Shown here piece by piece: positions 1,572 to 55,784 of a stretch of 64,000 nt of DNA. Where the stretch lies: positions 5,616 through 69,615 of the forward strand of contig JBGQLV010000002.1 in assembly GCA_041500225.1 (NCBI GenBank), in the 5' to 3' direction. Within the stretch, counting starts at the first letter, position 1. Each line of letters starts with the position of its first letter. Source of the stretch: Thermodesulfovibrionia bacterium (lineage in GTDB: Bacteria > Nitrospirota > Thermodesulfovibrionia > Thermodesulfovibrionales > SM23-35). The notes below the pieces were generated by a model. The model did not search any database. It saw only the letters and a program-made list of their open reading frames with translations, and had not been told where the DNA came from. Position numbers and translations under genes: made by a program.

Positions 1572-2150
1572 CTAAATACTCTGATATTGTTGGGAGATAA
1601 AGTTTAAAAGGCCCTGTACCCTTTTGACAAGATTCTCGGGATCAGGGTCGGTCCCTTTATTGACATAATGTGCAGGTGCAAGAAGTTCCATCTTCCTTCT
1701 AAAACCTTCGTCAGCCTTTATACCTGAAAAGAATACAATTGGAACCTTTATTATGCTGTCCTTCTCTTCGAGTGCCCTCAAAGTCCTTGCAGCAGTAAGG
1801 CCATCCATCACAGGCATATTAAGGTCAATTATTGCAAAGCTAACCCTGACATTTCTTTTCAATAGTTTCGCATACTCTGAGATGAGCTCAAGGCCATTTG
1901 TTACTGCCATAACCTCACTGGCTATTGCCTTTTTCAATATCAGCTCCTTAAGAAGTGTTCTTGTAAATTTCGAATCCTCTGCAATAAGTGCATATGTATT
2001 TATAGAACTCTTTGTGTCTTCCCAGAGGTTCTCTATACCCAGTGTAAAACCACAATAAGAACATGTAAGTTCCCTTCTCTCGTTTCTTACTACCACATTG
2101 TAAGGAACATCCTCACCACAGCATAGACAATATTTCTTACCTTCTTCCAT
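1572..2150 (-). CDS. response-regulator receiver protein with N-terminal zinc ribbon
   Basis: The N-terminus has CLCCG...CSYCG, a four-Cys ribbon. The C-terminal REC domain has the phospho-acceptor context IIDLNMPVMDG. No DNA-binding output domain is present. Confidence 0.7.
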   Translation of the reverse strand: MEEGKKYCLCCGEDVPYNVVVRNERRELTCSYCGFTLGIENLWEDTKSSINTYALIAEDSKFTRTLLKELILKKAIASEVMAVTNGLELISEYAKLLKRNVRVSFAIIDLNMPVMDGLTAARTLRALEEKDSIIKVPIVFFSGIKADEGFRRKMELLAPAHYVNKGTDPDPENLVKRVQGLLNFISQQYQSI

Positions 2151-13971: not shown

Positions 13972-14433
13972 ATGGAAAAAAAACTTGAGAGAATACTGAA
14001 AAATTATGTAAAAGACGAGTGTAATATAATATCTACACTGCAGGACGTCCAGGAGATTCTTGGTTATATTCCTGAAGAAGCAGTAAATGTTCTTTCAAAA
14101 AAACTTGATATTCCCACAAGCCGTTTATTCGGTATCATTACCTTTTATTCCCAGTTTCATTTAAAACCGAGGGGTGAAAATGTTATTACTGTCTGCCGTG
14201 GTACTGCCTGCCATGTTAATGGTTCTGAAAGGCTGATAAATAGACTTTTTATAGAACTTGAGATTCCGCCTGGAGGAGATACCACAGATGACCTCAGATT
14301 TACTGTAGAAAAGGTTAATTGCATTGGTGCATGCGGCATTGCTCCTGTAATAGTCGTAAATAACAAAGTGCACGGTAAAATGTCATTTGATAAAGTAATG
14401 AGAGAGATAAGAAATATAAAAACAGGTGAATAA
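13972..14433 (+). CDS. NuoE-like [2Fe-2S] subunit of NAD(P)-linked formate dehydrogenase (FdsG/HndA-like)
   Basis: It shows the thioredoxin-like 2Fe-2S Cys pattern CRGTACHVNG...CIGACGIAP. It is the first gene of a three-gene operon with NuoF-like and FdhA genes. Confidence 0.85.
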   Translation: MEKKLERILKNYVKDECNIISTLQDVQEILGYIPEEAVNVLSKKLDIPTSRLFGIITFYSQFHLKPRGENVITVCRGTACHVNGSERLINRLFIELEIPPGGDTTDDLRFTVEKVNCIGACGIAPVIVVNNKVHGKMSFDKVMREIRNIKTGE

Positions 14434-16204
14434 AGAAATCGCAATAAAAGTATGCACGGGCACTGGTGGAATTGCAGCCGGTGGGAATGAGGTATTGTCA
14501 TCATTTAAGAAAGCGCTGTCATCAGCCGGCGTCAAGGCATCTTTTCATGAAAATTGCTCAATACACAAGGTTGGCTGTAGGGGTTTCTGTGCAAAGGATG
14601 TCCTTGTAGATATTATCATTGATGGTGAAAAGACAACCTATCAGTACATAAAGCCTGATATGGTAACAAGGATTATTAGTGAACATATTATTGAAGGTAA
14701 CCCTGTCACGGAGTGGGCTGTTGGAGAGGAATACCACAACTTCCACAAAAAACAGCTAAGGGTAGTACTCTCTGACTGCGGTGAAATAGACCCGGAGGAT
14801 ATCAAGTCCTATTTAGCAGTTGGTGGTTACGAAGCTGCAAAAAAGGCCCTTACCTCAATGATATCTGAAGAGATACTCAGGGTTGTAAAAGACTCTAATT
14901 TAAGGGGTAGAGGCGGCGCAGGTTTCCCCACAGGACTAAAGTGGGAACTCGCGTTAAAAGCCAAGTCTGATGTGAAATATGTCATATGCAATGGTGATGA
15001 GGGTGATCCAGGGGCCTTCATGGACAGGGCGGTAATGGAAGGAGATCCCCATTCTGTTATTGAGGGGATGATTACATGTGCAAAGGCGATCGGTTCTCAT
15101 TTCGGCTATATCTATGTAAGGGCTGAATACCCTTTAGCCGTAAAACACCTTCAGATGGCTATAGACCAATGCCATAAGGCAGGATTTCTCGGCAAAAACA
15201 TTTTCAATACAGGGTTTGACTTTGACATAAAGATATTTAAAGGTGCAGGTGCATTTGTTTGTGGCGAAGCTACAGCCCTGATGCGTTCTATTGAGGGTAA
15301 ACGCGGTATGCCAAGCCCAAAGCTATGGCACTCTGCAATTAAAGGATTATGGGATAAACCAACAGTTCTGAACAATGTTGAGACCTTTGCAAACATTCCC
15401 CGGATTATATTAAAGGGAGCCGATTGGTACAAAAACATAGGGACTGAAAAAAGCGGTGGGACTAAAGTCTTTGCGCTAACGGGAAAAGTGAAAAATACCG
15501 GTCTGATCGAAGTCCCTCTCGGCATTTCCTTGAGGGAGATAATTTATGACATCGGCGGCGGGATTGAAGGTGACAGGAAATTCAAGGCAGTACAGACAGG
15601 CGGTCCGTCAGGAGGATGCATTCCCGCAGAGTTTCTTGATACAGAAGTAGATTATGAGCCCCTCGCACTTGCTGGCTCAATTATGGGTTCAGGCGGCATG
15701 ATTGTACTTGATGAGACTGATTGTATGGTTAATACAGCAAAGTTTTTCCTCGAGTTCACCCAGTCAGAGTCATGCGGCAAATGTACTCCATGCAGGATAG
15801 GTACAAAGAGACTGCTTGAAATATTAGACAGGATCACCTCGGGGAAAGGAAAAAAGGGCGACATAGAACTTCTCCAGGAACTCAGTGAAGATATAAAAGC
15901 AACCTCATTATGTGGATTGGGCATGACAGCACCTAACCCTGTATTAAGTACTATTAAATATTTCAGAAACGAATATGAGGCACACATTATAGATAAAAAA
16001 TGCCCTGCTGCTGTATGTAAAGATTTGATCAAATACTCTATCCTTGGAGAGGTCTGTACCGGCTGTGGCGCATGTAAACGAGTATGCCCTGCTGATGCGA
16101 TTAGGGGTATAAGAAAAACTGCGCATAGAATTGACCCCGCTCTGTGTATAAAATGTGGTACATGTTTTTATGCATGTAAGTTTAAGGCGGTATCAAAATC
16201 ATGA
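14426..16204 (+). CDS. NuoF-like FMN/NAD(P)H-binding iron-sulfur subunit (FdsB/HndC-like) with C-terminal 2x[4Fe-4S] ferredoxin domain
   Basis: Motifs are GRGGAGFPTGLKW, GDEGDPGAFMDR, GAGAFVCGEATAL, ESCGKCTPCR, and C-terminal CTGCGACKRVCP...CIKCGTCFYAC. The GTG start overlaps the upstream stop. Confidence 0.85.
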   Translation: MNKEIAIKVCTGTGGIAAGGNEVLSSFKKALSSAGVKASFHENCSIHKVGCRGFCAKDVLVDIIIDGEKTTYQYIKPDMVTRIISEHIIEGNPVTEWAVGEEYHNFHKKQLRVVLSDCGEIDPEDIKSYLAVGGYEAAKKALTSMISEEILRVVKDSNLRGRGGAGFPTGLKWELALKAKSDVKYVICNGDEGDPGAFMDRAVMEGDPHSVIEGMITCAKAIGSHFGYIYVRAEYPLAVKHLQMAIDQCHKAGFLGKNIFNTGFDFDIKIFKGAGAFVCGEATALMRSIEGKRGMPSPKLWHSAIKGLWDKPTVLNNVETFANIPRIILKGADWYKNIGTEKSGGTKVFALTGKVKNTGLIEVPLGISLREIIYDIGGGIEGDRKFKAVQTGGPSGGCIPAEFLDTEVDYEPLALAGSIMGSGGMIVLDETDCMVNTAKFFLEFTQSESCGKCTPCRIGTKRLLEILDRITSGKGKKGDIELLQELSEDIKATSLCGLGMTAPNPVLSTIKYFRNEYEAHIIDKKCPAAVCKDLIKYSILGEVCTGCGACKRVCPADAIRGIRKTAHRIDPALCIKCGTCFYACKFKAVSKS

Positions 16205-16230
16205 AACTTTGCTCCGAAAATACCTTCTTA

Positions 16231-16284
16231 TGTCATGCTGAACTTGATTCAGCATCTTTTGAGACCCTGAAACGAGTTCAGGGT
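16231..16284. repeat. double-hairpin REP-like element between the NuoF-like gene and fdhA
   Basis: The first hairpin is ATGCTGAA-cttga-TTCAGCAT (16235..16255). The second is ACCCTGAA-acgag-TTCAGGGT (16264..16284). It begins with TGTCATGC, like other family members. Confidence 0.75.
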
Positions 16285-16322
16285 AACAAGGAGGGTTTAG
16301 GAATAATACATAAGAGGTTTAT

Positions 16323-19088
16323 ATGGTTACTCTGACAATAGATGGCATGAAAGTTACAGTAAGGAAGCTGTCAACAGTTCTTGATGCTGCAAAAAAACTC
16401 GAAGTTCCAATACCCACACTATGCCACCATCCTGAACTTTCCCCATTTGGAGGTTGCAGGCTATGTATAGTTGAAATTCAAGGTATGGCAAGACCTGTTA
16501 CAGCCTGCACAACTATAGCAAAAGAAGGGATGGTAGTCACAACAACAAGCCCTTATTTAGAAAAATTAAGGAAAACAACCCTTGAACTTCTCCTATCTGA
16601 CCATCCAAATGACTGTATGGTGTGTGAAAGGGCAGGTGATTGCACACTCCAGGAACTTGCATATTTCTACGATATTAGGGAGAACAGATTCGTCGGCGAA
16701 AAAAGACCTTTTATTAAAAAGGACGAAAATCCATTTGTTGAAAGAGCTATGGAAAAATGCATACTCTGCGGGCAATGTGTGCGGGTATGTGAAGAAATTC
16801 AGGGTGTTAGTGCAGTTGATTTTGCTTATAAAGGATTTAATACAAGGGTATGCGCTTCTTATGAGAAAGATCTTGATTGTGAGTTCTGCGGCCAGTGTGT
16901 TGCGGTCTGCCCTACAGGAGCACTAACAGGTAAGATGTGGGCTCATAAAGGAAGGCAGAAAGACATAGAGCAAGTTGATACTGTTTGCCCGTACTGCGGA
17001 TGCGGCTGCAACCTTACACTCCATGTAAGGCGGAACGAAATTATCCGTGTCTCCTCAAGAGAAGATACGATTAACAAAGGCTGGCTCTGCGTAAAAGGTA
17101 GATTTGGTTATGGATTCATAAACAGCGCTGAGAGGCTCACAAAACCTCTTATCAGAATAGCTCCTAAAAAGCATTCGGCATCCGGCGCTAAGCATTCAGT
17201 CAAAAACTCCAAACTCCGAACTCCAAACTCCGAACTCTTCAGGGAGGCCTCATGGGAAGAGGCGTTGGATTATATCGCAAAGAGGTTGGGAGAGATAAAA
17301 GAAAAATATGGTCCGGACTCTATTGGCGGACTTTCTTCAGCAAGATGTACGAATGAAGAAAACTACCTCTTCCAGAAATTCATGCGTGCCGCCGTTGGTA
17401 CAAATAATGTTGACCATTGTGCAAGGTATTGACACAGCGCAACGGTGGCCGGTCTGGCCACAGTATTTGGTTCAGGGGCCATGACAAATTCCGTACCAGA
17501 GATTGAAAATCATGATGTAATCTTTGTCATCGGTTCAAATACAACAGAGACACACCCTATAATCGGTCTGAAAATGAAGAAGGCTGTTAAAAATGGAGCT
17601 GAACTTATTATTGCTGACCCAAGAAAGATTGACCTTGTAAGGTTTGCCAAGATATGGCTGCAGCACAGGCCAGGCACAGACGTTGCCCTTCTGAACTCTA
17701 TTATGCATGTAATTGTAAAAGAAAATTTAACAGATAAAAAATTTATAGAGGAACGGACAGAAGGCTTTGAATCCTTCGAGCAATCCCTCGCCGAATATAC
17801 ACCAGAGGAAGGCGAAAGGATTACAGGTGTTCCAAAGGAAGATATTATAAAGGTAGCGCTTCTTTATGGAAATGCCGTACGGCCCGGTATTTATTACACC
17901 ATGGGTATTACCCAGCATTCTCATGGAACAGAAAATGTCTATGCAATAGCAAACCTGGCGTTGATGACAGGTAATCTCGGAAGAGAAAGTACAGGGGTCA
18001 ACCCTCTCAGGGGACAGAACAATGTTCAGGGTGCAACAGATATGGGTTGCATACCTGACTTCTATCCCGGTTATCAAAAGGTAAATATACCGGGTATCAA
18101 GCAAAAATTTGAAATGGCGTGGGGTGTCAAGCTCTCTGACAAGGTCGGTTTAGCAGCAACGGAAATGATTGGCGCAACCTTCAAAGGCAAGTTGAAGGCC
18201 CTGTACATAATGGGAGAGAACCCTGTTTTAAGCGACCCGGATATGAACCATACAATAAAGGCACTTGGAAAACTGGATTTCCTTGTTGTACAGGACATAT
18301 TCATGACAGAGACAGCAGAGCTTGCGGATGTGGTATTGCCTGCAGCGTGCTTCGCGGAGAAAGATGGTACATTCACAAATACTGCAAGAAGGATTCAGAG
18401 GGTCAGAAAGGCAGTGGAACCACCAGGGGAGGCAAAAGAGGATTCATGGATAATTATGGAACTTGCAAATTTACTCGGGTATAAGATGAGATATAACTAT
18501 ATTGGAGAAGTATTTCATGAAGCTGGAAAGGTATGGCCGGCAGTAGCAGGTATAACTTACGGAAGAATTGAAAAGACAGGCCTTCAGTGGCCATGTCCTA
18601 CACTCGACCACCCCGGAACTCCCTATCTCTTCAAAGGAGGGTTTCCAAGAGGTAAAGCTGCATTCAGTACTGTCAGATACAGACCATCAGAGGAACTACC
18701 TGATAATGAGTATCCATTTTTATTCTCGACAGGAAGACAGCTTTTTCAGTATCATACAGGTTCAATGACAAGAAAAATTGATGCAATCAATAAGGTATCA
18801 CCAGATGCTTATATTGAGATTCATCCCGATGATGCAAAGCAATTGGGTGTAAATGATGGGAACAAAGTAAAAGTATCATCCCGGAGGGGCTCTGTAGATG
18901 TCAGAGTACGAATTTCTGAGCGTCCAGCAAAAGGTATGACCTTCATGCCGTTTCATTTTAAGGAGGCACCAGCAAATGTGCTTACAAATACTGCGCTTGA
19001 CCCAATCTCAAAGATACCTGAGCTAAAGGTATGCGCAGTTAAGATAGAACTAATAAAAAATGGAACCTTGAATGGAAACATGAAATGA
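16323..19088 (+). CDS. fdhA: formate dehydrogenase catalytic subunit, selenocysteine-containing (TGA 17430..17432 read as Sec)
   Basis: Track ORFs 16323..17432 and 17445..19088 share one frame. They are split only by a TGA inside the conserved active-site context [18 protein letters not shown]. The N-terminus has 2Fe-2S ([15 protein letters not shown]) and 4Fe-4S motifs ([23 protein letters not shown]) and the MopB motif [14 protein letters not shown]-like hairpin follows the TGA. Confidence 0.9.
17204..17238 (+). repeat. heptanucleotide tandem repeat (RAACTCC x5) inside fdhA
   Basis: The sequence reads aaactcc aaactcc gaactcc aaactcc gaactc(t). It encodes part of the low-complexity segment [12 protein letters not shown] in a linker. 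Confidence 0.8.
17430..17465 (+). promoter_or_regulatory. bacterial SECIS-like recoding hairpin downstream of the UGA codon
   Basis: The stem GTGGCC (17445..17450) pairs with GGCCAC (17456..17461) around the apical loop GGTCT. It begins about 13 nt after the TGA. The register and the GGUCU loop resemble the E. coli fdhF SECIS as I recall it. Confidence 0.75.
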
Positions 19089-19116: not shown

Positions 19117-19572
19117 ATGATTAAGGCGGATTTATTAAAACAACAGGTTTTGCTTGAGGATCTTGACAGCGAAGGACTGAACAAAATTTCTAAAATTATT
19201 AAAAAGTACTCCCTAAAAAAAGGAGAACAACTTTTTAAAGAAAAGGACGAAACAAAGGGCCTGTGGCTTATCCATTCAGGAAAGATTGAAATTTCCAGGG
19301 TAACTGCTGATGGGTGGAGACAAACACTCGCTGTCTTAACCCCTGGGCATTTTTTCGGGGAATTGTCCATCATTGAGAACAGGCGTCACGTTGCGTCTGC
19401 TGTCGCGATCGAAGAAACAGAACTCTTACTCCTTCCGAAAGAAGACTTCGAAAGGTTGTTCGAAGAAGATATGGCGCTGGCATGTAATATCATTAAAAGA
19501 ATTGCCATTGTGATGAGCAAAAACCTGCGACGGATGAACGATAAATTCCTGAGTGCATTAATAAGCTACTAA
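19117..19572 (+). CDS. standalone cyclic-nucleotide-binding (CAP effector) domain protein
   Basis: The 151-aa ORF has the cNMP-binding beta-roll signature GHFFGELSII...RHVASAVA. No HTH or other output domain is present. Confidence 0.75.
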   Translation: MIKADLLKQQVLLEDLDSEGLNKISKIIKKYSLKKGEQLFKEKDETKGLWLIHSGKIEISRVTADGWRQTLAVLTPGHFFGELSIIENRRHVASAVAIEETELLLLPKEDFERLFEEDMALACNIIKRIAIVMSKNLRRMNDKFLSALISY

Positions 19573-19716: not shown

Positions 19717-21489
19717 ATGTCGCTTGATCCAACCAAACATGCAGACTGGGAGATTGCAGAAGCAGCTGAAAAGACGATGAAGACATCTCAGCAATTAGCT
19801 GAGGAGTTGGGTATTGACAAAAAAGAGTTATTGCCGCATGGGCATTATATTGCAAAGGTTGATTATGCAAGGGTTCTGGAAAGGTTAAAGGATAAGCCTG
19901 ACGGGAAATTCATTGAAGTCACAGCCATAACACCAACGCCGCTCGGGGAAGGAAAATCAACTACAACGATGGGACTTCTTCAGGGAATGGGTAAACGCGG
20001 GAAAAAGGTTACTGCCTGCATACGCCAGCCATCCGGTGGACCCACTATGAACATCAAAGGGTCTGCTGCCGGAGGCGGTTTATCACAGTGTATTCCTCTT
20101 ACAGAGTTTTCACTCGGTCTCACAGGTGATATAAATGCTGTTATGAATGCCCATAACCTTGCCATGGTTGCATTGACAGCAAGGATGCAGCATGAATTCA
20201 ATTACACTGATGAACAGCTTGCAAAGAGAAAACTGAGACGTCTTAATATAGACCCCAGGAATGTTGAAATGGGCTGGATTATGGATTTTTGTGCACAGGC
20301 GCTAAGGAATATAATTATCGGTATCGGTGGCAAGATGGATGGGTTTATGATGCCCTCAAAATTTGGGATAGCCGTTTCTTCAGAGGTTATGGCCATACTT
20401 GCTGTCTTCAGCGATCTTGCGGACTTCAGGAAGAGAATAGGCGGGATCGTCGTTGCTTACGACAAACAGGGTACTCCAATTACTGCGGAAGATCTTGAGG
20501 TAGCAGGGGCCATGGCTGCATGGATGAGGGAGGCCATAAATCCGAATCTCCTTCAAAGCCTTGAGGGCCAACCTTGCTTTGTCCATGCCGGACCTTTCGC
20601 CAATATTGCTGTTGGTCAGTCATCTGTGGTTGCCGACAAGATATGTCTTAAGTTAGCTGATTATCATATTACCGAGTCTGGTTTTGGTGCTGATATTGGT
20701 TTTGAGAAGTTCTGGAATGTGAAGTGTCGCTACTCCGGAAACATTCCGAACGTTTCGGTTATTACGGCTACAATAAGGGCATTGAAACACCATGGCGTAA
20801 ATGCAGGCGCGCCACTGGTTGTGCCGGGCAGACCGATTCCAAAAGAATATTTTCAGGAAAATCTCGCGTGGCTTGAAGATGGAATGGCAAACGTAATACA
20901 TCACATAAACACTATTAAAAAGGCGGGGATAAACCCTGTTGTCTGTATAAACCGGTTCCACACTGATACGGATGAAGAGGTTAAATTGACCAAGAAGATG
21001 TGCGAGGCAGCCGGAGCGCGTGTCGCGGTGTCACAGCACTGGCAGTATGGAAGCGAAGGTGCCCTTGAGCTGGCTGACGCAGTTTCTGATGCATGTAATG
21101 ATAAAGTCAATTTCAAATTCCTTTATGACCTTGACACACCAATCCGTAAGAGGGTTGAACTGATAGCTAAAGAGGTTTACGGCGCAAATGGCGTAAGTTA
21201 TTCTCCGGAAGCAACTGCAAAGGCAGAGAGATTTGAAAAGGATCCAAAGTTTAAAGACTATGCAACTATGATGGTCAAAACCCATTTATCTCTCTCACAT
21301 GACCCTACGTTGAAAGGTGTACCGAAGAACTGGACTCTCCACATCAGAGATTTTCTCACTTATGGCGGATCCAGGTTTATCTGCCCTGTGGCGGGAAATA
21401 TCAGCCTTATGCCCGGAACATCCTCCGATCCAGCATATAGACGGGTTGATGTAGATGTTGAAACAGGCAAGGTTAAAGGATTGTTTTAA
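19717..21489 (+). CDS. fhs: formate--tetrahydrofolate ligase
   Basis: It has the [18 protein letters not shown]-loop. The 590-aa length and the C-terminal [10 protein letters not shown] pattern are typical of FTHFS. AGGAGG lies upstream. Confidence 0.95.
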
Positions 21490-22613: not shown

Positions 22614-22742
22614 TTCATAAGTAAGATTACTTATTTGTCATTGCGGCTTGTCCGCAATTCTTCTGAAAAGAAATCCCGAAAGCATTCGGGACGACAAGCG
22701 GGAATGACAGAAATTAGAATGTTATGAATTGTTACTTATGAA
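22614..22742. repeat. MITE-like element with 11-bp terminal inverted repeats (TTCATAAGTAA / TTACTTATGAA)
   Basis: The interior carries TGTCATTGCGG...CCGCAATTC, CCCGAAAGCATTCGGG and GCGGGAATGACA. It lies between the convergent deacetylase and kinase genes. Confidence 0.75.
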
Positions 22743-22769: not shown

Positions 22770-24707
22770 TTAAATTGAGCTTAACCTTCTCTTTATATCC
22801 ATCGCCTCTGAAACCAGATCTAAAACCTGATCTATTTTAAAGGGTTTGTTTAATATCAGATCTGCACCACTTTCCTTCATCTTTTCATCATCTATCTGAA
22901 TGCCCCAGCCAGTAATCAATGCTACCGGGACTCTTGGATCTTTGGCCTTTACAGATTTAGCTACCTCCCAACCGCTCATCCCCGGCATACCAAGGTCAGT
23001 AAAGACTAAATCAATCCCCTCTTTAAAAAAGATGTCTAATCCTTCTTTCCCAGAGGAAGCCTTAAAAACATTATGTCCACCCTGGGTTAGTAAACTCCCT
23101 AAAATATTCCGGACCATTTCTTCGTCCTCTATAACCAGGATATTTGCACGATTAACCTCTCTGGTCGTAATATGCCTTCCCACTTTCTCTTTGAGTTCCG
23201 CCGGGACAGGTAGATTTATTATAAAGGTAACACCTTTTCCTTCCTCAGTCTCAACCTCAATAGTTCCCTTATGCCTTGTGATAATGCTATAGGCAATGCT
23301 CAATCCCAATCCATCGCTTATGACACCTTTAGTAGTAAAAAATGGATCAAAAATCCTTTTTTTCACTTCTTTAGATATGCCTATTCCGGTATCAGTTACA
23401 AGTATCTGCACTTCCTCATTAATGGCTCTTGTCTCAATGGTAATCTTACCTCCTTCAGGCATAGCATCGATTGAGTTGAAGATTATATTGGTTAATACCT
23501 CCCTTATTTCTGACGGGTTTCCCATAATGTGCGGCAAATCCTTTTTTAACAAGGTTATCAATTCGATGTTAATACCTTTCCCCTGTGCCTGATCTTTCCA
23601 TCGTGGTTTTGACATCTCCTTCACTTCTTCAACGATCTCATTGATATCCACTTTAAAATATTCTTTATCTGCCCTTATTCTGGTAAACTCCTGTATGCGT
23701 CGTACAGTCTCAGCAGCATCTAAAGCAGCAATCTCAATTATCTTGAGTTGTTTTTTTATTTGTTCAGAATTCAATGTATCTACCTGCCTGACAAGTAACT
23801 CTGTATTACCCAGAATAATAGCCAACGCATTGTTGAAATCGTGTGCAACCCCTGAAGCCATCTGGCCTATAGCTCTTAGCTTCTCGGATTGGATGAGCTG
23901 CTCCTCAATTTTTTTCCTTTCGCTGACATCCCTCATGATAACCTCAACACCAATAGTCTCACCTTTTTGGGAATAGGGACGGTCACCAATTTCAAGAAAA
24001 ATTACCTCTCTATTTTTGTTTAATGCCCTGATCTCATAAATATCCGCTAATGCTTCCCCGACTATCTTTTTCTCAAAACGTTCCTGAGCCACGGGTAGGT
24101 CTTCCGGGTAAATAAAGTCTGAAAACCTTTTATCTTCCAATTCCTGCTCAGAATAACCAAACAATCCGCTAAATCTCGTGTTATAGATGCTGAGCTTACC
24201 ATCAGGGATCATAAATACGGCTAGCGCATCATTTATACTTTCAAATAATCCCCTGTATTTTTCCAGAGACTCTTTTAACTCTTTTTCTAATCTCTGCTTC
24301 TCTTTTGCCAGCATCTGTTTCTCTATAGACTTTTTAACTACAACCCTCAGTTCTTCAATATCAAAGGGTTTGGTAACAAAGGCATCTGCACCTTTGTTTA
24401 AAGCCTTAATAGCATTTTGAGTACTTGCATAGGCTGTCATCATGATTACACTCAAATCCGGATTATTCTTCTTAATAATTTCCAACAATTCTACTCCGTC
24501 TATATCCGGAAGTTTTATGTCCAATATAGCTATATTAAAGGGGCTTTCTTTTAAACAGGCAGCTCCATTTGAGCCCGTATTTGCTGTTAAAACCTTGTAC
24601 CCATCAAGCTCAAGGATGCGGGAAAGGGTTTTACACATGCCTTTATCGTCATCGATTATCAAAACATTTGGTATAGAGCCTGTCGAAATATCGAAATTAT
24701 TAGTCAT
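22770..24707 (-). CDS. hybrid sensor histidine kinase/response regulator (REC-PAS-HisKA-HATPase-REC)
   Basis: The N-terminal REC is ILDIKLPDIDG and is followed by a PAS segment. The H-box is SGVAHDFNNAL and the ATPase motif is DTGIGISKEVKKRIFDPFFTTK. The C-terminal REC is FTDLGMPGMSG. Confidence 0.85.
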   Translation of the reverse strand: MTNNFDISTGSIPNVLIIDDDKGMCKTLSRILELDGYKVLTANTGSNGAACLKESPFNIAILDIKLPDIDGVELLEIIKKNNPDLSVIMMTAYASTQNAIKALNKGADAFVTKPFDIEELRVVVKKSIEKQMLAKEKQRLEKELKESLEKYRGLFESINDALAVFMIPDGKLSIYNTRFSGLFGYSEQELEDKRFSDFIYPEDLPVAQERFEKKIVGEALADIYEIRALNKNREVIFLEIGDRPYSQKGETIGVEVIMRDVSERKKIEEQLIQSEKLRAIGQMASGVAHDFNNALAIILGNTELLVRQVDTLNSEQIKKQLKIIEIAALDAAETVRRIQEFTRIRADKEYFKVDINEIVEEVKEMSKPRWKDQAQGKGINIELITLLKKDLPHIMGNPSEIREVLTNIIFNSIDAMPEGGKITIETRAINEEVQILVTDTGIGISKEVKKRIFDPFFTTKGVISDGLGLSIAYSIITRHKGTIEVETEEGKGVTFIINLPVPAELKEKVGRHITTREVNRANILVIEDEEMVRNILGSLLTQGGHNVFKASSGKEGLDIFFKEGIDLVFTDLGMPGMSGWEVAKSVKAKDPRVPVALITGWGIQIDDEKMKESGADLILNKPFKIDQVLDLVSEAMDIKRRLSSI

Positions 24708-24745
24708 GCTCTTTATTTCTTTCTAACGTTTGTCCAGATACCTTA

Positions 24746-26008
24746 TTATAAATCTTGTTGATCGCCGATTTCTTCTTTAGCTATAGGCAGTCTGATAACA
24801 AAGGTAGTACCCTTACCAACCTCACTTTTTAGTTTTATTTGTCCTTCATGTCTTTCAATAATTCCCTGGGTAACTGCCAACCCCAATCCAATACCCTTGG
24901 CCTTAGTAGTAAAAAGGGGATCGAATATCTTCTTCTGGTCTTCTTCCTTAATTCCACCACCAGTATCTTTAAATTCGACCTCAATAAACCTTCCATCCTC
25001 CCGGCTGGTTATTGTTAATCTTCCACCCACTTCCATGGATTGACATGCATTTAAGATCAGATTATTAAAGGCCTGTCTTATTTGATAAGGGTCAACCGCA
25101 GCCTTCTTAAGGTTGGGTTTTAGATTTATCTCTACTTTAATATTCTCCGGCGACTTGGTAACCGATAAGGTATATTTAATAATTCTATTTATATCAGATG
25201 GCTTCACTATTGGTTTTGAAATCAGAGAAAAATTCAGAAGGTCTCTGATAATCTTGTCAGAAAGACCTATCTCGTTCTCTATAATATTAAGAAACTCAGA
25301 AATGCTCGGCTCTTCTGCTGCCAGACGACTTTTACCTATCTTTTCTCTTAAATAGTAGGCTGAGTTCTTTATTACTCCTAAAGGATTCCTCAATTCATGA
25401 GCAACACCAGCAGCCAACTGCCCTATGGCCGCCAATTTTTCAGACCGAATCAGTCTCTCCTGAGTTCTCCTTAATTCCAAACTGCTCCTTTCTATCTCTG
25501 CAGTTCTTTCCTCTAACTCTACCTTTGACTTTTCCATTTTTATCTGATTATCTACTAATTCTGCATAAATACGGTCTATCACCAGTATGATTTCCTGCCA
25601 CATTTTTTCTTCCATCTGACGGTGGACTACACTGTCCGTTACATCCTTAGCAATATGTACAAACCTAACAATTTCATCGTTTCCGTCTTTTATTGGATAG
25701 ACATTAATTAATACATGGTGTTGACTGCCACTATCATGGATACCGGCATGAACATGTGTCGTAGAGCTGGATCTACCTGTGGCTAAGACATCATAAATTG
25801 GACATATATCAAAAGGTCCCTGGCAGGGAAAATCAAGGCCATGTGTAACATAATAGCAATGTTTGTCAATAATGTTGGGCCCATAAATGTCTATTGATTT
25901 CTGGTTTGCCCATATAACCTTGTACTGTCTCGATATAAGCAAAATCTCTTCGTCAATTCCATCAACAATATTCTCATATACCCATTTATTCTTTCCCTGA
26001 AAATTCAT
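24746..26008 (-). CDS. cytoplasmic sensor histidine kinase with Cys/His-rich PAS-like N-terminal domain
   Basis: The H-box is AAGVAHELRNPL and the ATPase motif is DTGGGIKEEDQKKIFDPLFTTK. No TM segments are present. The N-terminal domain contains HCYYVTHGLDFPCQGPFDICP and a His-rich stretch. Confidence 0.85.
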   Translation of the reverse strand: MNFQGKNKWVYENIVDGIDEEILLISRQYKVIWANQKSIDIYGPNIIDKHCYYVTHGLDFPCQGPFDICPIYDVLATGRSSSTTHVHAGIHDSGSQHHVLINVYPIKDGNDEIVRFVHIAKDVTDSVVHRQMEEKMWQEIILVIDRIYAELVDNQIKMEKSKVELEERTAEIERSSLELRRTQERLIRSEKLAAIGQLAAGVAHELRNPLGVIKNSAYYLREKIGKSRLAAEEPSISEFLNIIENEIGLSDKIIRDLLNFSLISKPIVKPSDINRIIKYTLSVTKSPENIKVEINLKPNLKKAAVDPYQIRQAFNNLILNACQSMEVGGRLTITSREDGRFIEVEFKDTGGGIKEEDQKKIFDPLFTTKAKGIGLGLAVTQGIIERHEGQIKLKSEVGKGTTFVIRLPIAKEEIGDQQDL

Positions 26009-26029
26009 TTCTGTACCATGCGATCATGC

Positions 26030-27493
26030 CTACCTCTTTATTGTATGAACAGTGCATACAAGGCAGGGATCAAAGGATCTTACCACATGCCCAATCTCTA
26101 TGGGATTATCCACATTTTCGACTATGGTCCCGTTTAGCGCATGTTCACATGCCCCGTACTGATCAAAAGAATCCTTAGGAGAAAGGTTCCATGCAGTAGG
26201 AGTTATCACCTGATATCTCTCAATCTTGCCATTTTTAATGGTTAACCAGTGACCGAGTGACCCTCTCGCTGCCTCAATAAGACCAATCCCTTTTGCCTCT
26301 GGAGGCACCAAAGGCTTTTTATAGAATGGCTTACGGGCGTCTATCTCTCTTATCCAGATTCCAACCTGCCTTACCAGTCTCACCGCCTCATGAAGCCTTG
26401 CCAAAACCCTTAAAAAAACGCCTGAGCCTGATTTATTAAATATATCATAAATTAAGGAGTCTTTATCCAGTATCATCCTGGCTAAAGGACCTACCTCGAT
26501 TACGTTGTCATCATAGCGTGGTGATTTACACCAACTGTAAGCCCCTTCTTTATCCGGATCAGGGTCTGTTATGCCCTCAGAAGGATGCAGTCCACCTTGA
26601 TATCCCTTCAAAAAGGAATACTTGATGTATTCAGTTATCTTCTCCTGGTTAAATGGGTAAAAATCCCTGTCATAGTACCCGCTGGGAAGCCAGGTTTGTC
26701 CCTCAGAAAGTTCATATGCTCCATACGACAGAAATCTATCCGGGCCTTTACCGATTTTATCCAACCCTAATTCTCTCCCGTACCTCACATAAATCCCAAG
26801 GTCGCTATCATAGTGATTTGACTCTGTTAACCATTTATCCAGGTCATCCATACTCCTATTCTCCAGCCACCTATCAATATCGCATCCCAGTAAGCTTTCT
26901 TCCACATAATCCTGTAACTCCCTCAACAGTCCTAATGCCTTGGTTTGGCGTGAAATACTGATACTGCAGGTAACTCCTCCTGGCTGAAAGACAAGTGTAT
27001 TGGGCCATTTGCCTGCGAATACCCCCATAAGTTCTAACATACTGGGACGAGCCTTGATAGATTTCAGATACGACGTTCCCTTAAATGGAAGAAAGCGCTT
27101 CTCCAGCTCTTGAAATCCTGGATGCATTGAATATTTTTTATTGGTCAAATCAGGGGCAAATAAGGCATAGAAATGTACTATATGACTCATAAGATTCTCG
27201 ATTGCCAGAACAATATTTCTTACCCTGTACGCATTTTCCGGCATCTGAGATTTCCATGCATTCCTTATAGCTGTCGAGCTTGCTACTCCGTGTGATGCCC
27301 CACAGATTCCACAGATCCTTGGAGTAAATACTATGGCATCCATAGGATCTCTTCCCTTTAACAAGATTTCAAACCCTCTAAACATCACACCCTTGGATCT
27401 GGCATTTTGCACCTTTCCATCCTTAACCTCAGCAGTTATCTCCAGGTCACCTTCCACTCTATTAAATGGACTTAAATTTATCTTCTTAGACAT
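26030..27493 (-). CDS. [NiFe]-hydrogenase large subunit (group 2-like, no cleavable C-terminal extension)
   Basis: The N-terminal Ni-binding motif is RICGICGASHG and the C-terminal motif is DPCLVCTVH. Only four residues (TIKR) follow the motif before the stop. Confidence 0.9.
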   Translation of the reverse strand: MSKKINLSPFNRVEGDLEITAEVKDGKVQNARSKGVMFRGFEILLKGRDPMDAIVFTPRICGICGASHGVASSTAIRNAWKSQMPENAYRVRNIVLAIENLMSHIVHFYALFAPDLTNKKYSMHPGFQELEKRFLPFKGTSYLKSIKARPSMLELMGVFAGKWPNTLVFQPGGVTCSISISRQTKALGLLRELQDYVEESLLGCDIDRWLENRSMDDLDKWLTESNHYDSDLGIYVRYGRELGLDKIGKGPDRFLSYGAYELSEGQTWLPSGYYDRDFYPFNQEKITEYIKYSFLKGYQGGLHPSEGITDPDPDKEGAYSWCKSPRYDDNVIEVGPLARMILDKDSLIYDIFNKSGSGVFLRVLARLHEAVRLVRQVGIWIREIDARKPFYKKPLVPPEAKGIGLIEAARGSLGHWLTIKNGKIERYQVITPTAWNLSPKDSFDQYGACEHALNGTIVENVDNPIEIGHVVRSFDPCLVCTVHTIKR

Positions 27494-27503
27494 ATTAAAC
27501 TCC

Positions 27504-27526
27504 TTAATCCGCCTCAGGCGGATTAA
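27504..27526. repeat. 23-nt palindrome TTAATCCGCCTCAGGCGGATTAA between the hydrogenase small and large subunit genes
   Basis: It is identical to 11975..11997. It overlaps the small-subunit stop codon (27523..27525) and abuts the large-subunit Shine-Dalgarno (AAGGAG on the minus strand). Confidence 0.85.
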
Positions 27527-28488
27527 TCTACCCTTCTGAATGATACTGCATTTTTCTTTAATCTCTCAGGAGTGGCAAGTTTTGCTAAATTGGCCATCCC
27601 CACATACCAGGCTTTAGGAACATCAAGGGGCAACGTAACCGGGACCTCTCCTATCTTTCTGGTCTCAAAGAAAGGTACAGAACCATCTGGAAAATCTGGC
27701 GAGGTACAGGCAATACATGGAAAACCTGCCCGAGTGCAACTTCCTGTACGACCCAGCCACATACGCTCATTACAGTCTGATTCACATAAGGTTCCTTTAC
27801 AGCCCAGATATTCAAACAGACATCCCAGTTGACTATATTCAGTTGCTGAAGCTTTAAACTCATAAAATTCATTTCTTGGGCAGCCGTGATGAGCCAGTTT
27901 TTTATAGAAGGCCTTAGGACGATTGAAATCATCTAATTCTCCGGTGCCTAATTTCCCCATTATTAACCGCATTAGTGTCTCTATTATCCAATCCGGATGA
28001 CATGGGCAACCCGAAACGTTGACTACAGGATGGCCTGAACCTGATACATAATCCTTTCCTAAAGCCCCTCCTTTTTGTTTCCTCAAGAACTGGAGACCGG
28101 TAGCCTCAATAAGATTAGCCCCCGCTGCAACAATACCGCCAAAGGCAGCACAGGTACCAATCGCTATGGTGTATTGGCTAACCTTAGCAAGCATTTCTAT
28201 CCATTCCTTAAACGGACGACCATTGGATAGAAAATATTTTCCGCTATTTTCAGGTCCACAAATTACAGCGCCTTCCACTATTAAAACGTCAAGTTTTGTT
28301 TTTCTGGAAATACATTTATTAAAAATCTTTTCTACTTCTTCTCCTATTTCAAGGCTGAGAAAGGGGTGCCACAGTAAATTTATATCAAGCATCTTCAGCG
28401 CAGTAAGTACATGAGGCTGCTCTGCATTAAGGAATGATATAGTATCTCCATTGCAACCACCACTTTGTAACCATAATAAATTGACCAT
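27523..28488 (-). CDS. [NiFe]-hydrogenase small subunit, no Tat signal peptide (cytosolic)
   Basis: It starts directly at MVNLLWLQSGGCNGD. Cluster motifs are GTCAAFGG, GCPCHPDW, HHGCPRNEF, GCLFEYLGCKG and CTRAGFPCIACTSPDFP. Confidence 0.9.
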   Translation of the reverse strand: MVNLLWLQSGGCNGDTISFLNAEQPHVLTALKMLDINLLWHPFLSLEIGEEVEKIFNKCISRKTKLDVLIVEGAVICGPENSGKYFLSNGRPFKEWIEMLAKVSQYTIAIGTCAAFGGIVAAGANLIEATGLQFLRKQKGGALGKDYVSGSGHPVVNVSGCPCHPDWIIETLMRLIMGKLGTGELDDFNRPKAFYKKLAHHGCPRNEFYEFKASATEYSQLGCLFEYLGCKGTLCESDCNERMWLGRTGSCTRAGFPCIACTSPDFPDGSVPFFETRKIGEVPVTLPLDVPKAWYVGMANLAKLATPERLKKNAVSFRRVD

Positions 28489-28651
28489 TGCCTATGCCTC
28501 CTTTTTCCCTAAAAGACAGGGAAATATCAAATAAATACTATAAATACTATCTAATAAATATTACCATAAGGTCTATTTAAAATCAAATATAATATTTTAC
28601 ACTATTTCATACCCGAAAATGCCGATAGACTTCATAATGCATTGATTATAC

Positions 28652-28796
28652 TGTCATTGCGAGGTCGCATCGACCGTGGCAATCCGACCTGAAAGGTCGT
28701 TGCGAAGGCGAAGCCCGTGGTAATCCCAAATGAGATTCCTCGCTTCGCTCGGAATGACGCTTTGCGTCAGATTGCTTCGTTTCACTCGCAATGACA
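28652..28796. repeat. MITE-like element with 12-bp terminal inverted repeats TGTCATTGCGAG / CTCGCAATGACA
   Basis: The arms lie at 28652..28663 and 28785..28796. The interior has further GGAATGAC-type cores. It lies in the divergent region between the hydrogenase operon and nfeD. Confidence 0.8.
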
Positions 28797-28926
28797 ATTC
28801 TTATCGCTGGATTTGGGTTATACTGTCTTTATTGCAATTTAATGTCTTAATGTCTATAATCTTATCAAAATATGCGCAATGAACGTATAGCCCTTTGTAA
28901 GTTTCTTTGTTGTAAAGAATAAGTTC

Positions 28927-54851: not shown

Positions 54852-55784
54852 ATGTCACAGATTTACCATGATATTACCCAAACAATAGGTGCTACGCCTT
54901 TAGTAAGGCTGAACTGGATTACAGAAGGGCTTCATGCGACAATCCTGGCTAAACTTGAATTCAAGAATCCTTTGGGAAGCGTGAAAGACCGTATCGGTCT
55001 TGCCATGATAAAGGCAGCAGAAGAGCAGGGCCTTATTAAAAACGATACGCTTATCGTAGAACCAACGAGCGGGAATACAGGGATTGCCCTTGCTTTTGTG
55101 TGTGCGACCAGAAAATACCGCCTGATTTTGACCATGCCCGAGACAATGAGTATCGAAAGGAGAAAACTCCTCAAGCACCTTGGCGCAGAGATAGTTCTTA
55201 CACCGGGAAGTGAAGGTATGAAAGGGGCTATCAATAAGGCCGGGGAAATACTATCTCAGAACCCGCATGCCTTTATGCCCGATCAATTCAGCAATCCGGC
55301 AAATCCCGAAATTCACCGCAGGACAACTGCAGAAGAGATCTGGCGGGACACCGATGGAGGTGTTGATATCTTCATTTCCGGGGTAGGAACAGGCGGCACT
55401 ATCACAGGAGTTGCAGAAGCAATAAAAGAGCGGACCCCATCCTTTAAGGCAGTTGCGGTTGAACCTGCTGACTCACCTGTACTGTCCGGTGGTAAACCTG
55501 GACCTCATAAGATTCAGGGTATCGGAGCAGGCTTCATTCCTAAAGTGCTGAATACCAAAATCATTGATGAGATTATCACGGTAACGAACGATCAGGCCTT
55601 TGAAACAGCCAGGGCTGTAGCTAAAATTGAAGGAATCTTGTGCGGCATTTCTTCCGGTGCAGCTGTTTGGGCTGCTCTTCAAATAGCCATGCGTCCTGAA
55701 AACAAAGGGAAGCAGATCGTGGTTATATTGCCGAGTACCGGCGAGCGCTATTTGAGTACAGATTTGTTCAAAGATTCATTATAG
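54852..55784 (+). CDS. cysK: cysteine synthase A (O-acetylserine sulfhydrylase)
   Basis: The PLP-lysine context is NPLGSVKDR. It also has [11 protein letters not shown] and [10 protein letters not shown]. Confidence 0.9.

Follow-up and report, generated by a model that had tools for sequence, protein, structure and literature searches.

The closest described counterpart of the locus reported here is the HoxBC-HoxJ-HoxA system of Cupriavidus necator (HupUV-HupT-HupR in Rhodobacter; HydDB group 2b), the textbook case of H2 sensing in aerobic bacteria. The last 50 amino acids of its small subunit, HoxB, are required for HoxJ binding and for double-dimer formation (PMC5665086, PMC8229454), the Cupriavidus sensor matures without a C-terminal extension or a protease (PMC8229454), and its electron acceptor in the cytoplasm has yet to be identified (PMC5665086). 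We have analyzed a 64-kb stretch of DNA (the window) from an anaerobic, Thermodesulfovibrionia-type Nitrospirota bacterium, and describe in it a four-gene operon that, in our judgment, is quite likely to encode an H2-sensing signalling complex, for which a mechanism is proposed below.

The four-gene locus and its hydrogenase subunits

The features under discussion are these:

22770-28488, minus strand: whole locus, four co-directional genes in the order small subunit, large subunit, kinase 1, kinase 2
28489..28926, minus strand: intergenic region of 438 nt, upstream of the small-subunit gene and common to it and a divergent NfeD gene
27523..28488, minus strand: small subunit, 321 aa (Pfam Oxidored_q6 and NiFe_hyd_SSU_C)
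27526..27705, minus strand: small-subunit C-terminal tail, residues about 262-321, containing LPLDVPKAWYVGMANLAKLATPERLKKNAVSF
26030..27493, minus strand: large subunit, 487 aa (Pfam NiFeSe_Hases, E 9e-90)
24746..26008, minus strand: kinase 1, 420 aa (Pfam PAS_9-HisKA-HATPase_c)
25634..25957, minus strand: Cys/His-rich PAS of kinase 1, residues 18-125 (PAS_9, E 1.5e-8)
25499..25624, minus strand: HoxJ-type helix in kinase 1 (residues about 129-170, HRQMEEKMWQEIILVIDRIYAELVDNQIKMEKSKVELEERTA), a candidate element for docking to the hydrogenase
22770..24707, minus strand: kinase 2, 645 aa (Pfam Response_reg-PAS-HisKA-HATPase_c-Response_reg)
22673..22692, minus strand: terminator-like hairpin, then a T-run, 78 nt past the kinase 2 stop

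All four reading frames are intact, and the gaps between them are 29, 21 and 38 nt in gene order, as an earlier note on this DNA had described (four co-directional minus-strand genes, gaps of 21-38 nt). This close spacing suggests that the genes are co-transcribed. The phrase "translationally linked" in the same note overstates the case, because the genes do not overlap and a Shine-Dalgarno sequence is visible only 5' of the two hydrogenase genes. The 438-nt intergenic region contains, besides the AGGAGG that serves as ribosome-binding site, an inverted repeat with perfect 12-nt arms (28652-28663 and 28785-28796); no promoter was identified in it. The hairpin beyond kinase 2 is the probable end of the operon, a suggestion that its position alone makes, since sites of this kind are, over the region as a whole, no more numerous than chance predicts. 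The flanking genes are unrelated (NfeD and SPFH, divergent, upstream; a histone-deacetylase-family gene and formate-THF ligase downstream). We confirmed that genes for a protease, cytochrome b or diaphorase are absent from the immediate neighbourhood. The operon has no partner of the HucM-like, cytochrome, diaphorase or ferredoxin type, and the window carries neither hyp nor protease genes. A NuoE/NuoF-like diaphorase module within the window, at 13972-16204 (+), is part of a formate dehydrogenase operon on the opposite strand.

The small subunit begins MVNLLWLQSGGC. Its ATG is preceded, two codons 5', by an in-frame TAG, with AGGAGG 7 nt upstream, and a longer N-terminus or Tat signal is therefore impossible; the earlier note had allowed for a missed upstream start, and there is none. 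By this reading of the sequence, the small subunit is a cytoplasmic, Tat-less protein. It is 48% identical to HoxB over 318 aa, and its top PDB match is HucS (E 6e-86). Ligands predicted by alignment are C12/D15/C113/C161 for the proximal cluster, H200/C203/C223/C230 for the distal cluster, and C239/C251/C258/C261 for the medial cluster; C163 and C235 are additional cysteines. The proximal motif, C12-x-x-D15, reads C-x-G-D, whereas canonical 2b enzymes have C-G-G-C. The His-Cys3 distal cluster is as in HoxB, as are the four medial cysteines, of which 2a and group 1 enzymes have only three (alignment; PMC5665086), and because of these four ligands the medial cluster is predicted to be [4Fe-4S], as in HoxB. 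The C-terminal tail, in which PKAWY occupies residues 291-295 (nt 27604-27618), shares the PKAW motif of the HoxJ-binding domain of HoxB. A profile built solely from 34 canonical 2b tails matched it with 68.8 bits (E 6e-20) and matched no 2a or group 1 tails. We conclude from these sequence matches that the tail is homologous to the 2b HoxJ-binding domain.

The large subunit, for which the top PDB match is HucL (E 2e-124), is only 38% identical to HoxC. Its Ni-Fe ligands are C61, C64, C477 and C480, and every catalytic and Fe-S cluster ligand is present in the two subunits. The L1 motif is RICGICGASH, with His68 in place of the Gln of canonical 2b enzymes, and the gas-channel pair is I63 and L111 rather than Ile/Phe, with Leu111 replacing Phe at the channel bottleneck; the L1 His and the gas-channel Leu are as in catalytic enzymes. 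The protein ends DPCLVCTVH-TIKR, four residues (TIKR) past the L2 His, H483, exactly as the earlier note had it. Like HoxC, it is essentially devoid of a C-terminal extension and has no accompanying protease gene, although canonical 2b enzymes do not have these four residues.

So unusual a tail, together with the lack of hyp and protease genes across the window, could be taken to mean that the locus is a decaying remnant whose hydrogenase is unable to mature. We regard this as very improbable: the frames are intact, all the metal ligands are conserved, and relatives with 73-85% large-subunit identity retain both the four-residue tail and the gene order, which points to purifying selection. As noted above, the Cupriavidus sensor likewise matures without extension or protease.

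Kinase 1: proposed docking helix and PAS domain

Kinase 1 is soluble and consists, in order, of a Cys3-His PAS, the proposed docking helix, HisKA (H204) and HATPase_c, with the catalytic boxes identified by reading the sequence. Residues 130-174 are predicted as one long helix that runs straight into the DHp domain. We made a helix profile solely from 28 HoxJ/HupT-type kinases and searched it against 3831 ORFs. Kinase 1 was matched with E 4.4e-7, its HoxJ-type helix covering residues about 131-165, there were no matches among these ORFs outside hydrogenase-adjacent transducers, and the reciprocal helix profile recovered all 2b kinases.

The Cys/His-rich N-terminus, described as PAS-like in the earlier note, was modelled by AlphaFold2 as a PAS fold (mean pLDDT 72.8, with moderate confidence in the Cys region), and Foldseek against the PDB gave the NifL FAD-PAS, LOV domains and DosP as best matches. 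The model thus indicates a real PAS fold. C51, C62, C69 and H85 are invariant in four lineages, and all PAS modules sharing them are located within sensor-hydrogenase clusters; H98 and H118 are invariant among closer homologs. The Cys3-His site is the probable binding site of a metal or Fe-S cofactor.

These observations raise the alternative that sensing of redox state or metal is the main task of kinase 1, in which case the hydrogenase would be a dedicated electron donor, reduction of the PAS cofactor by H2-derived electrons the signal, and helix and tail only a tether. The invariant residues, the resemblance to cofactor-binding PAS domains and the as yet unidentified cytoplasmic electron acceptor of the Cupriavidus sensor (PMC5665086) would all fit. 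Yet most kinases of the wider clade, like HoxJ, do without a Cys3-His PAS and retain the helix, which makes this PAS an accessory to the mechanism rather than its core; also, its cofactor is putative, and the Cys region was modelled with only moderate confidence. We consider this alternative rather unlikely. In HoxJ the helix is followed by the PAS, whereas here the Cys3-His PAS precedes the helix, which precedes DHp. The Cys3-His PAS is thus no equivalent of the HoxJ PAS, but an extra module ahead of the common helix, and it is accordingly a less likely contact for the small subunit.

Conservation of the kinase linkage and signal output

The same four-gene order was observed in five Nitrospirota loci of about 80% identity. 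In homologs of 44-60% identity from other lineages, a kinase gene comes next almost always. Distant relatives of 41-60% identity (L008, L009, L011-L014, L019, L020, L022, L065, L098-L100), from Chloroflexi-like, Desulfobulbaceae and other metagenomic lineages, have it either directly after the hydrogenase genes or past a HycI protease gene. Among loci with an adjacent kinase, 40 have both tail and helix and 7 have neither; the 2 discordant loci are both truncated by the end of a contig (Fisher p = 7e-7, a value that ignores phylogeny and is inflated by shared ancestry). Some members of the wider clade (L004, L011, L012, L100) retain a HycI protease along with a long extension of the large subunit, so the short tail is not clade-wide. 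The 2a loci in the survey have a protease, and none of 10 has an adjacent kinase.

The outputs appear, from gene content, to be interchangeable across distant relatives: a sigma54 regulator in L008, L012, L020, L022, L065 and L098-L100, REC-GGDEF plus HD-GYP in L009, REC-HD-GYP in L013 and a class III cyclase in L011. Several relatives adjoin other hydrogenase operons, Hdr/Mvh-like ones among them, the kind of location to be expected of an H2-metabolism regulator. Here the next component is kinase 2, a hybrid (REC with D63, PAS, HisKA with H289, HATPase_c, REC with D571) whose REC-PAS-kinase-REC make-up had been recognized earlier and agrees with Pfam. Neither docking-helix profile matches it, and it is retained after kinase 1 in L001-L003, L005 and L018; we propose it as a second phosphorelay tier. 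As the earlier note stated, the operon encodes no DNA-binding response regulator, and we found neither such a regulator nor an Hpt protein in the 64-kb window. This absence is specific to this Nitrospirota lineage; clade relatives do use NtrC-type sigma54 regulators.

Starting from what can be read directly in the sequence, namely the gene order, the lack of a Tat signal, the intact ligands, the 2b homology of tail and helix and the conserved kinase linkage, we propose the following mechanism. The subunits would form a cytoplasmic, low-turnover [NiFe]-hydrogenase that oxidizes H2 and passes electrons onto three Fe-S clusters. The PKAWY-region tail would dock on the HoxJ-type helix, directly before DHp, the domain for dimerisation and phospho-acceptance. 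Autophosphorylation of kinase 1 at H204 would then change with the redox or conformational state that H2 imposes on the hydrogenase. If HoxJ is a guide, H2 would turn kinase 1 off, and the Cys3-His PAS, through its presumed cofactor, would supply a second, redox-type input. Phosphoryl groups would then go to kinase 2 and from there to a partner whose gene lies at another place in the genome, with a presumed regulon.

Several observations weaken this proposal: the missing 2b hallmarks (His68, Ile63/Leu111, C-x-G-D), the placement of the clade outside canonical 2b in NJ trees, the lack of a DNA-binding regulator or Hpt in the window, the HycI and long extensions of some clade members, and the identity of the best solved relative, Huc, a respiratory, energy-conserving group 2a enzyme. 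Some of these, together with the catalytic-type L1 His and gas-channel Leu, would fit an ordinary cytosolic, 2a-like uptake enzyme whose expression the two kinases regulate, or beside which they lie by chance, with H2 not read via the enzyme. That explanation is, we believe, distinctly improbable, given the lack of protease and electron-acceptor partner, the HoxJ-binding type of tail (missing from 2a enzymes), the four-Cys medial cluster, the helix found only in hydrogenase-adjacent transducers, and the protease-bearing, kinase-free 2a loci. The same features of the present locus support H2 sensing, as do its cytoplasmic group 2 enzyme with all catalytic and cluster ligands, the four residues past the L2 His, the linkage in distant relatives, the hydrogenase operons next to several of these, and the co-occurrence of tail and helix. 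Judged on these sequence features, the hydrogenase most likely serves H2 detection rather than harvesting.

Comparison with known hydrogenases

The sequences place the enzyme in group 2 of the [NiFe]-hydrogenases and not in an energy-converting clade. The earlier note had named such a clade, with kinase linkage lost in relatives, as evidence against a sensor; the subunits fall outside it, and the linkage is kept beyond close relatives. Its proposal of an analogous, group 2b/2c-like sensory hydrogenase in an anaerobe agrees with this assignment and with the HoxBC-HoxJ signatures. Its claim of "exactly" the regulatory-hydrogenase traits goes too far, given His68, Ile63/Leu111, C12-x-x-D15 and the four residues past the final His. 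In our NJ trees, deep nodes were without resolution and the Nitrospirota clade lay outside canonical 2b. A cytoplasmic small subunit without Tat signal and a soluble kinase encoded directly downstream, with the HoxJ N-terminal helix, are common to this locus and the HoxBC-HoxJ system. The two differ in the next component (a hybrid kinase here, an NtrC-type regulator there) and in their anaerobic and aerobic hosts.

Like HydDB group 2c (putative sensory, diguanylate cyclase/phosphodiesterase-linked), the enzyme is a cytosolic group 2 hydrogenase of an anaerobe with predicted H2 sensing, and GGDEF or HD-GYP proteins follow in wider-clade relatives (L009, L013, P0124 contig); unlike 2c, this operon encodes no cyclic-di-GMP enzyme. 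Its L2 matches the published 2c consensus, SFDxCLVCTVH (PMC4853749), which is not discriminating because Huc also matches. Another clade, "X", is a candidate for the original 2c: it includes a sequence bearing the Thiomargarita "2c" L2 motif, its small subunits have a CGGCGGDT[WM] motif and weak tail similarity, and its kinases are without the helix.

Huc of Mycobacterium smegmatis (PDB 7UTD; HydDB group 2a), the closest solved structure, is cytoplasmic too and likewise has Ile in CGIC. In contrast to the present locus, Huc-type loci have a protease, a large-subunit extension of 15-19 residues and no adjacent kinase, and their small subunits have a C-x-G-N proximal motif, Lys for the fourth medial Cys, no distal His and a different tail. 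The sensory [FeFe]-hydrogenases of Thermotoga/Thermoanaerobacter (HydS, group C) follow the same concept: low in activity, they serve anaerobes as H2 sensors and have a signalling module of the PAS type (PMC11023054). Their catalytic family is unrelated to [NiFe] enzymes, and the PAS is fused to the hydrogenase. To our knowledge, their partners are not two-component kinases. By sequence, then, the present system differs from canonical 2b at several points and is a probable variant of the known H2-sensor type; the docking elements of the textbook hydrogen sensor also occur in an uncultured anaerobic Nitrospirota bacterium where, if our reading is true, they signal to a kinase.

The four-gene locus and its surroundings

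An earlier note described the segment at 22770-28488 as a [NiFe] hydrogenase without a Tat signal, joined to two histidine kinases, and proposed it as a candidate H2-sensing signal system. The sequence bears out that observation. The host is an uncultured member of the Nitrospirota, of Thermodesulfovibrionia type. Pfam supports all domains of the four genes, which are listed below in order of transcription.

Genes of the hydrogenase-kinase locus
27523-28488, minus strand: [NiFe]-hydrogenase small subunit, 321 aa (Pfam)
26030-27493, minus strand: [NiFe]-hydrogenase large subunit, 487 aa (PF00374, E 9e-90)
24746-26008, minus strand: kinase 1, soluble PAS-HisKA-HATPase protein, 420 aa (Pfam)
22770-24707, minus strand: kinase 2, hybrid REC-PAS-HisKA-HATPase-REC protein, 645 aa (Pfam)

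The genes are co-directional, with gaps of 29, 21 and 38 nt that place kinase 1 only 21 nt after the large subunit, and the natural reading is that they form an operon. The description of them as translationally linked was overstated, since none of the four overlap. An AGGAGG stands before the small-subunit ATG, an in-frame TAG lies two codons upstream of it, and the protein begins at the LWLQ motif; the TAG excludes a hidden upstream Tat signal, so that the small subunit indeed lacks one and no upstream start had been missed.

The flanking genes, namely divergent NfeD and SPFH genes upstream and a deacetylase-family gene and formate-THF ligase downstream, are unrelated to the hydrogenase locus. 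A terminator-like hairpin follows kinase 2. A promoter and terminator scan gave counts no higher than in shuffled controls. It yielded no assignable promoter upstream of the small-subunit gene, where a crude GG-N10-GC search gave weak sigma54-like matches only. The 438-nt intergenic region upstream of that gene contains a 12-nt perfect inverted repeat, TGTCATTGCGAG at 28652-28663 and CTCGCAATGACA at 28785-28796 (arms 121 nt apart), which is the sole such pair in the window and may be what is left of a small mobile element, or else a structure with a regulatory role. Also, a short perfect hairpin, TCCGCCTGAGGCGGA, is present at 27494-27522 on the minus strand, between the small-subunit stop and the large-subunit ribosome-binding site.

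Elsewhere in the window, NuoE-like, NuoF-like and FdhA-type molybdopterin genes at 13972-19088 (plus strand) make up a soluble formate dehydrogenase operon. Its FdhA probably contains selenocysteine, since the motif HCARY-U-HSA includes an in-frame TGA at 17430-17432. The operon is followed by a gene for a cNMP-binding protein (19117-19572) and by formate-THF ligase (19717-21489). Three large ORFs at 57118-63165 (plus strand) resemble, by eye, type I-C cas3 (HD motif), cas8c and cas7 (NPNGDP motif); no CRISPR repeat array was found in 55700-57200. PADLOC returned only weak, generic HATPase and REC matches for the two kinases of the hydrogenase locus, and hence no link of either to a defence system.

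Hydrogenase subunits and their place in group 2

The large subunit has L1 and L2 motifs RICGICGASH (residues 59-68) and DPCLVCTVH (475-483), which fit the patterns RxCGxCxxxH and DPCxxCxxH, with the four Ni-Fe ligands C61, C64, C477 and C480, and by alignment the Fe-S ligands for three clusters are all present in the small subunit. That the locus is decaying is a very remote prospect, given this complete ligand set. The proximal motif, C12-N-G-D15, has Asp in place of the second Cys. The corresponding motif is C-G-G-C in 2b sensors and C-x-G-N in 2a enzymes. In group 2b sensors all three clusters are cubanes, with Cys4 ligation at the proximal and medial sites and His-Cys3 at the distal one, and the window protein matches them in its medial ligands, which are four Cys as in HoxB of the Cupriavidus necator sensor and unlike 2a and group 1, and in its His-Cys3 distal ligands. 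Two further cysteines were observed close to cluster-binding motifs of the small subunit: C163 (nt about 27998-28000), in G-C-P-C-H-P, is specific to the Nitrospirota lineage, and C235 (nt about 27782-27784), in C-E-S-D-C-N, is conserved across the clade of kinase-linked, tail-bearing sequences and replaced by Ala in 2b.

The large subunit differs from 2b at several positions. L1 has His68 (CGASHG) where 2b has Gln (CSVSQS), and the gas-channel bottleneck is Ile63/Leu111 (HFYALF) rather than the Ile/Phe pair of 2b sensors (HFYLFF in HoxC), which has been linked to O2 resistance (PMC11023054). The protein ends DPCLVCTVH-TIKR, four residues beyond His483, whereas canonical 2b large subunits end at the final His (35/35); 2b sensors have neither an extension cleaved off by a protease nor an endopeptidase of their own.

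Searches of the PDB identified HucL (E 2e-124) and HucS (E 6e-86), of the Mycobacterium smegmatis group 2a enzyme Huc, as the nearest solved relatives of the large and small subunits, respectively; for both, group 1 and group 3 structures scored far below Huc. The top matches in a plasmid search were of the 2a and HupV/HoxC types, identity to the pHG1 sensor of C. necator was 48% for the small subunit (HoxB) and 38% for the large (HoxC), and HupV of Hydrogenovibrio was among the cluster members of the ten nearest 50% representatives. NJ trees agree in placing the window hydrogenase with group 2 and not groups 1, 3 or 4. The subunits are not those of an energy-converting clade, as the earlier note had anticipated. 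In two NJ trees, whose deep nodes are unreliable, the Nitrospirota clade lies outside canonical 2b and 2a, together with kinase-linked, tail-bearing sequences. Bootstrap support for motif-defined classes was zero, the regex classes having mislabelled sequences in which the small subunit was missing or mis-called, and the classification rests on the plain NJ trees and motif tables. No curated NCBIfam model reached its cut-off for either subunit, the best being NF045520 for the small (163.7 bits against 470) and NF033181 for the large (409.6 bits against 600). Because this lineage fits no curated NCBI model and is cleanly neither 2a nor 2b, hydrogenase surveys may misclassify it.

The likeness to Huc raises the alternative that we are dealing with an ordinary 2a-like uptake enzyme that happens to stand beside regulators. 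We regard this as quite unlikely: the 2a loci in our survey had HycI in 10/10 cases, large-subunit tails of 15-19 residues and a kinase in 0/10, whereas the window locus has a 4-residue tail and two kinases, and a search of the operon and of the whole 64-kb window found no protease gene.

Group 2c of HydDB comprises putative sensory enzymes linked to cyclic-di-GMP. The window L2, RSFDPCLVCTVH, fits the published 2c consensus SFDxCLVCTVH (PMC4853749), but Huc carries the same motif, so that the consensus does not discriminate. The 2c hallmark, a co-transcribed diguanylate cyclase/phosphodiesterase, is not shared, in that by Pfam no gene of the operon encodes a GGDEF, EAL or HD-GYP domain; cyclic-di-GMP-type genes do occur in relatives, at loci L009 and L013 and on contig P0124, the last of which is GGDEF-linked and falls near the window's superclade in the NJ tree. 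Full-text literature on group 2c yielded passing mentions only. A distinct group 2 clade, here called X (loci L023-L027, L031, L047, L054 and L066), is marked by the small-subunit N-terminal motif CGGCGGDT[WM], an L1 ending in HL and weak HoxB-tail similarity; its kinases adjoin the hydrogenase and have no HoxJ-type helix, and GGDEF or HD-GYP genes are also found at some loci. One member sequence has the exact Thiomargarita "2c" L2 motif, and clade X may for this reason be the original HydDB 2c. Its helix-less adjacent kinases suggest a second, independent coupling of hydrogenase to signalling.

Signatures shared with HoxBC-HoxJ and kinase linkage in relatives

The small-subunit tail of the window protein, LPLDVPKAWYVGMANLAKLATPERLKKNAVSF, aligns with HoxB LPTDMPKAWFVALASLSKSATPKRVKLNATAD. 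A profile built solely from 34 canonical 2b tails gave the window small subunit 68.8 bits (E 6e-20), other kinase-linked relatives 55-74 bits and clade X 27-35 bits, and gave no score for 2a or group 1 tails. HoxB needs its last 50 residues to form the double dimer and to bind HoxJ (PMC5665086, PMC8229454).

On the kinase side, a helix of ~35 residues, W-x-E-[IV]-[IL]-x3-[DE]-x-[IL]-Y-x2-L...E-x-K-N-x-x-L, is common to the hydrogenase-adjacent kinases, at residues 9-44 in HoxJ and 131-165 in kinase 1. Kinase 1, soluble and encoded next to the hydrogenase, is of the HoxJ/HupT type, but with a domain order unlike that of HoxJ. To avoid circularity in cross-validation, a profile was built solely from 28 HoxJ/HupT-type kinases and searched against 3831 ORFs; it detected kinase 1 (E 4.4e-7) and all remaining kinases in the window-like clade, and the reciprocal profile recovered all 2b kinases. 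Kinase 2 and other second-tier kinases did not match. The sole non-kinase match was a hydrogenase-adjacent cyclase at locus L011. This protein (10418-11557 of L011), a class III nucleotide cyclase (PF00211) that follows hydrogenase and protease genes, has its own HoxJ-type helix (E 3e-8, 2b-only profile), which indicates that the helix is a portable module not restricted to kinases.

Of the loci with an adjacent kinase, 40 had both tail and helix and 7 had neither; the 2 discordant loci are cut off by the ends of their contigs (p = 7e-7 by Fisher's test, without correction for phylogeny). Three loci added later, L098-L100, have both. From these sequence patterns, we infer that tail and helix may be the two halves of a docking interface.

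The linkage of kinase to hydrogenase is conserved, as the earlier note would require of a sensor. Five close Nitrospirota loci keep the identical four-gene set, and among the more informative distant relatives with 41-60% large-subunit identity, whose contexts came from exact-protein look-ups and from scanning 80 group 2 loci in metagenomes, a kinase follows the hydrogenase pair, sometimes with a HycI gene between. What comes after the kinase varies: an NtrC-type sigma54 regulator at L008, L012, L020, L022, L065 and L098-L100; REC-GGDEF and GAF-HD-GYP proteins at L009; a REC-HD-GYP protein at L013; and at L011, the class III cyclase and a hybrid kinase. At L014 and L019, the hydrogenase-adjacent kinase is itself a hybrid kinase. 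Several kinase-linked clusters adjoin Hdr/Mvh-like or other hydrogenase operons, as would be expected for a regulator of H2 metabolism. For example, hydrogenase-kinase-sigma54 cassettes at L008 (1-6800, 14382-17497) and L098 (8813-12788) lie beside HdrA/MvhD/HdrBC-like and group 3-like hydrogenase genes, which are likely their regulated targets.

An NtrC-type sigma54 regulator of the HoxA/HupR type was found neither in the window operon nor in the 64-kb window, and the operon, as noted earlier, encodes no DNA-binding response regulator, nor does the rest of the window. Only two other two-component proteins were observed there, both without a DNA-binding domain: a membrane-anchored PAS-HisKA-HATPase-REC hybrid kinase of 715 aa, ~10 kb away (37909-40056, plus strand), and a zinc-ribbon-plus-REC protein (1572-2150, minus strand).

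The Cys3-His PAS domain

AlphaFold2, with a five-sequence alignment (mean pLDDT 72.8), predicted a PAS fold at about residues 20-122 of kinase 1, followed by one long helix (130-174) that contains the shared motif. Foldseek matched the PAS domain to cofactor-binding PAS domains, namely the NifL FAD-PAS, LOV domains and DosP; as a lone query in a homolog search, the N-terminus returned four fragments of close orthologs. Four settings, all within sensor-hydrogenase clusters, keep C51, C62, C69-P70 and H85 invariant: the kinases of the Nitrospirota, those of Desulfobulbaceae at L014 and L019, and the second-tier kinases of L012 and of L065. In the last two (L012 13070-14890, which Pfam describes as REC-HTH_17-PAS-HATPase, and L065 7421-9163, assigned by similarity only) the residues take the form C-x10-C-x4-CP...H, as in kinase 1. 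This repetition of the invariant residues shows that the domain recurs in sensor-hydrogenase clusters, and from its sequence a metal or Fe-S site is plausible.

We had considered the Cys/His PAS domain as the equivalent of the HoxJ contact domain and rejected this, because the PAS domain comes before the element in common with HoxJ and is missing from most relatives. Its position before the helix, and its absence from most relatives and from HoxJ, argue for an additional input and not the core contact. A PAS-centred redox sensor, for which the hydrogenase serves as electron donor, is an alternative that we hold to be unlikely; the same distribution among relatives speaks against it.

Proposed signalling route and comparison with known sensors

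In the aggregate, the conserved kinase linkage, the 2b-type tail and the HoxJ-type helix support, with refinements, interpretation of the locus as an H2 sensor, and we consider it probable that it is an H2-sensing module. Oxidation of H2 by the cytoplasmic enzyme would leave the Fe-S chain in a different redox or conformational state; from docking onward, the steps are those we infer. Contact between tail and helix would alter autophosphorylation of kinase 1 at H204, and H2 probably turns the kinase off, by analogy with HoxJ, which phosphorylates HoxA and renders it inactive when no H2 is present (PMC10073562). The Cys3-His PAS domain would supply kinase 1 with a second input, and kinase 2 (D63 or D571, H289) would then receive phosphoryl groups and relay them to a partner whose gene lies elsewhere.

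A broader reading, which we offer only tentatively and which, taken as a whole, is rather doubtful, would join these elements. Possibly, the tail (PKAW) and helix make up a single, portable interface for docking, through which sensory [NiFe]-hydrogenases are linked to outputs that can be exchanged (the helix is seen in histidine kinases and in nucleotide cyclases; diguanylate cyclases are perhaps a further case) and which is common to aerobic Proteobacteria and strict anaerobes. In the Nitrospirota, the PAS site would then take up electrons from H2 or provide another redox input, and a kinase-to-hybrid-kinase phosphorelay without its own transcription factor might control the nearby formate and Wood-Ljungdahl genes.

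H2 is a central currency in anaerobic communities. Yet, to our knowledge, the [NiFe] H2 sensors studied by experiment come solely from a few aerobic or phototrophic Proteobacteria, and we know of no structure of the sensing complex and no established route by which the signal passes from hydrogenase to kinase. Lineages that are very far apart, with different output domains, retain two putative docking elements, the tail and a helix that precedes the dimerisation domain of the kinase, and this points to a concrete and testable interface. The compact anaerobe sensor, with its helix fused straight to DHp, may ease dissection of that interface or engineering of H2 biosensors; its PAS domain suggests that a second input, based on Cys/His residues, is combined with H2 sensing; and the family around the locus is widespread and experimentally untouched.

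The earlier note held that HoxBC and its Rhodobacter counterpart HupUV share exactly the traits that it listed for the locus. The likeness extends to the tail and the adjacent kinase, and not to the L1 Gln, the Phe bottleneck, the sigma54 output or placement in the HoxC/HupV clade. The locus is probably, then, a HoxBC-HoxJ-like H2 sensor in an anaerobe. It departs from its proteobacterial counterparts in the motif of the proximal cluster, in an L1 and a gas channel of catalytic type, in the rearranged input of its kinase and in having a phosphorelay as output.
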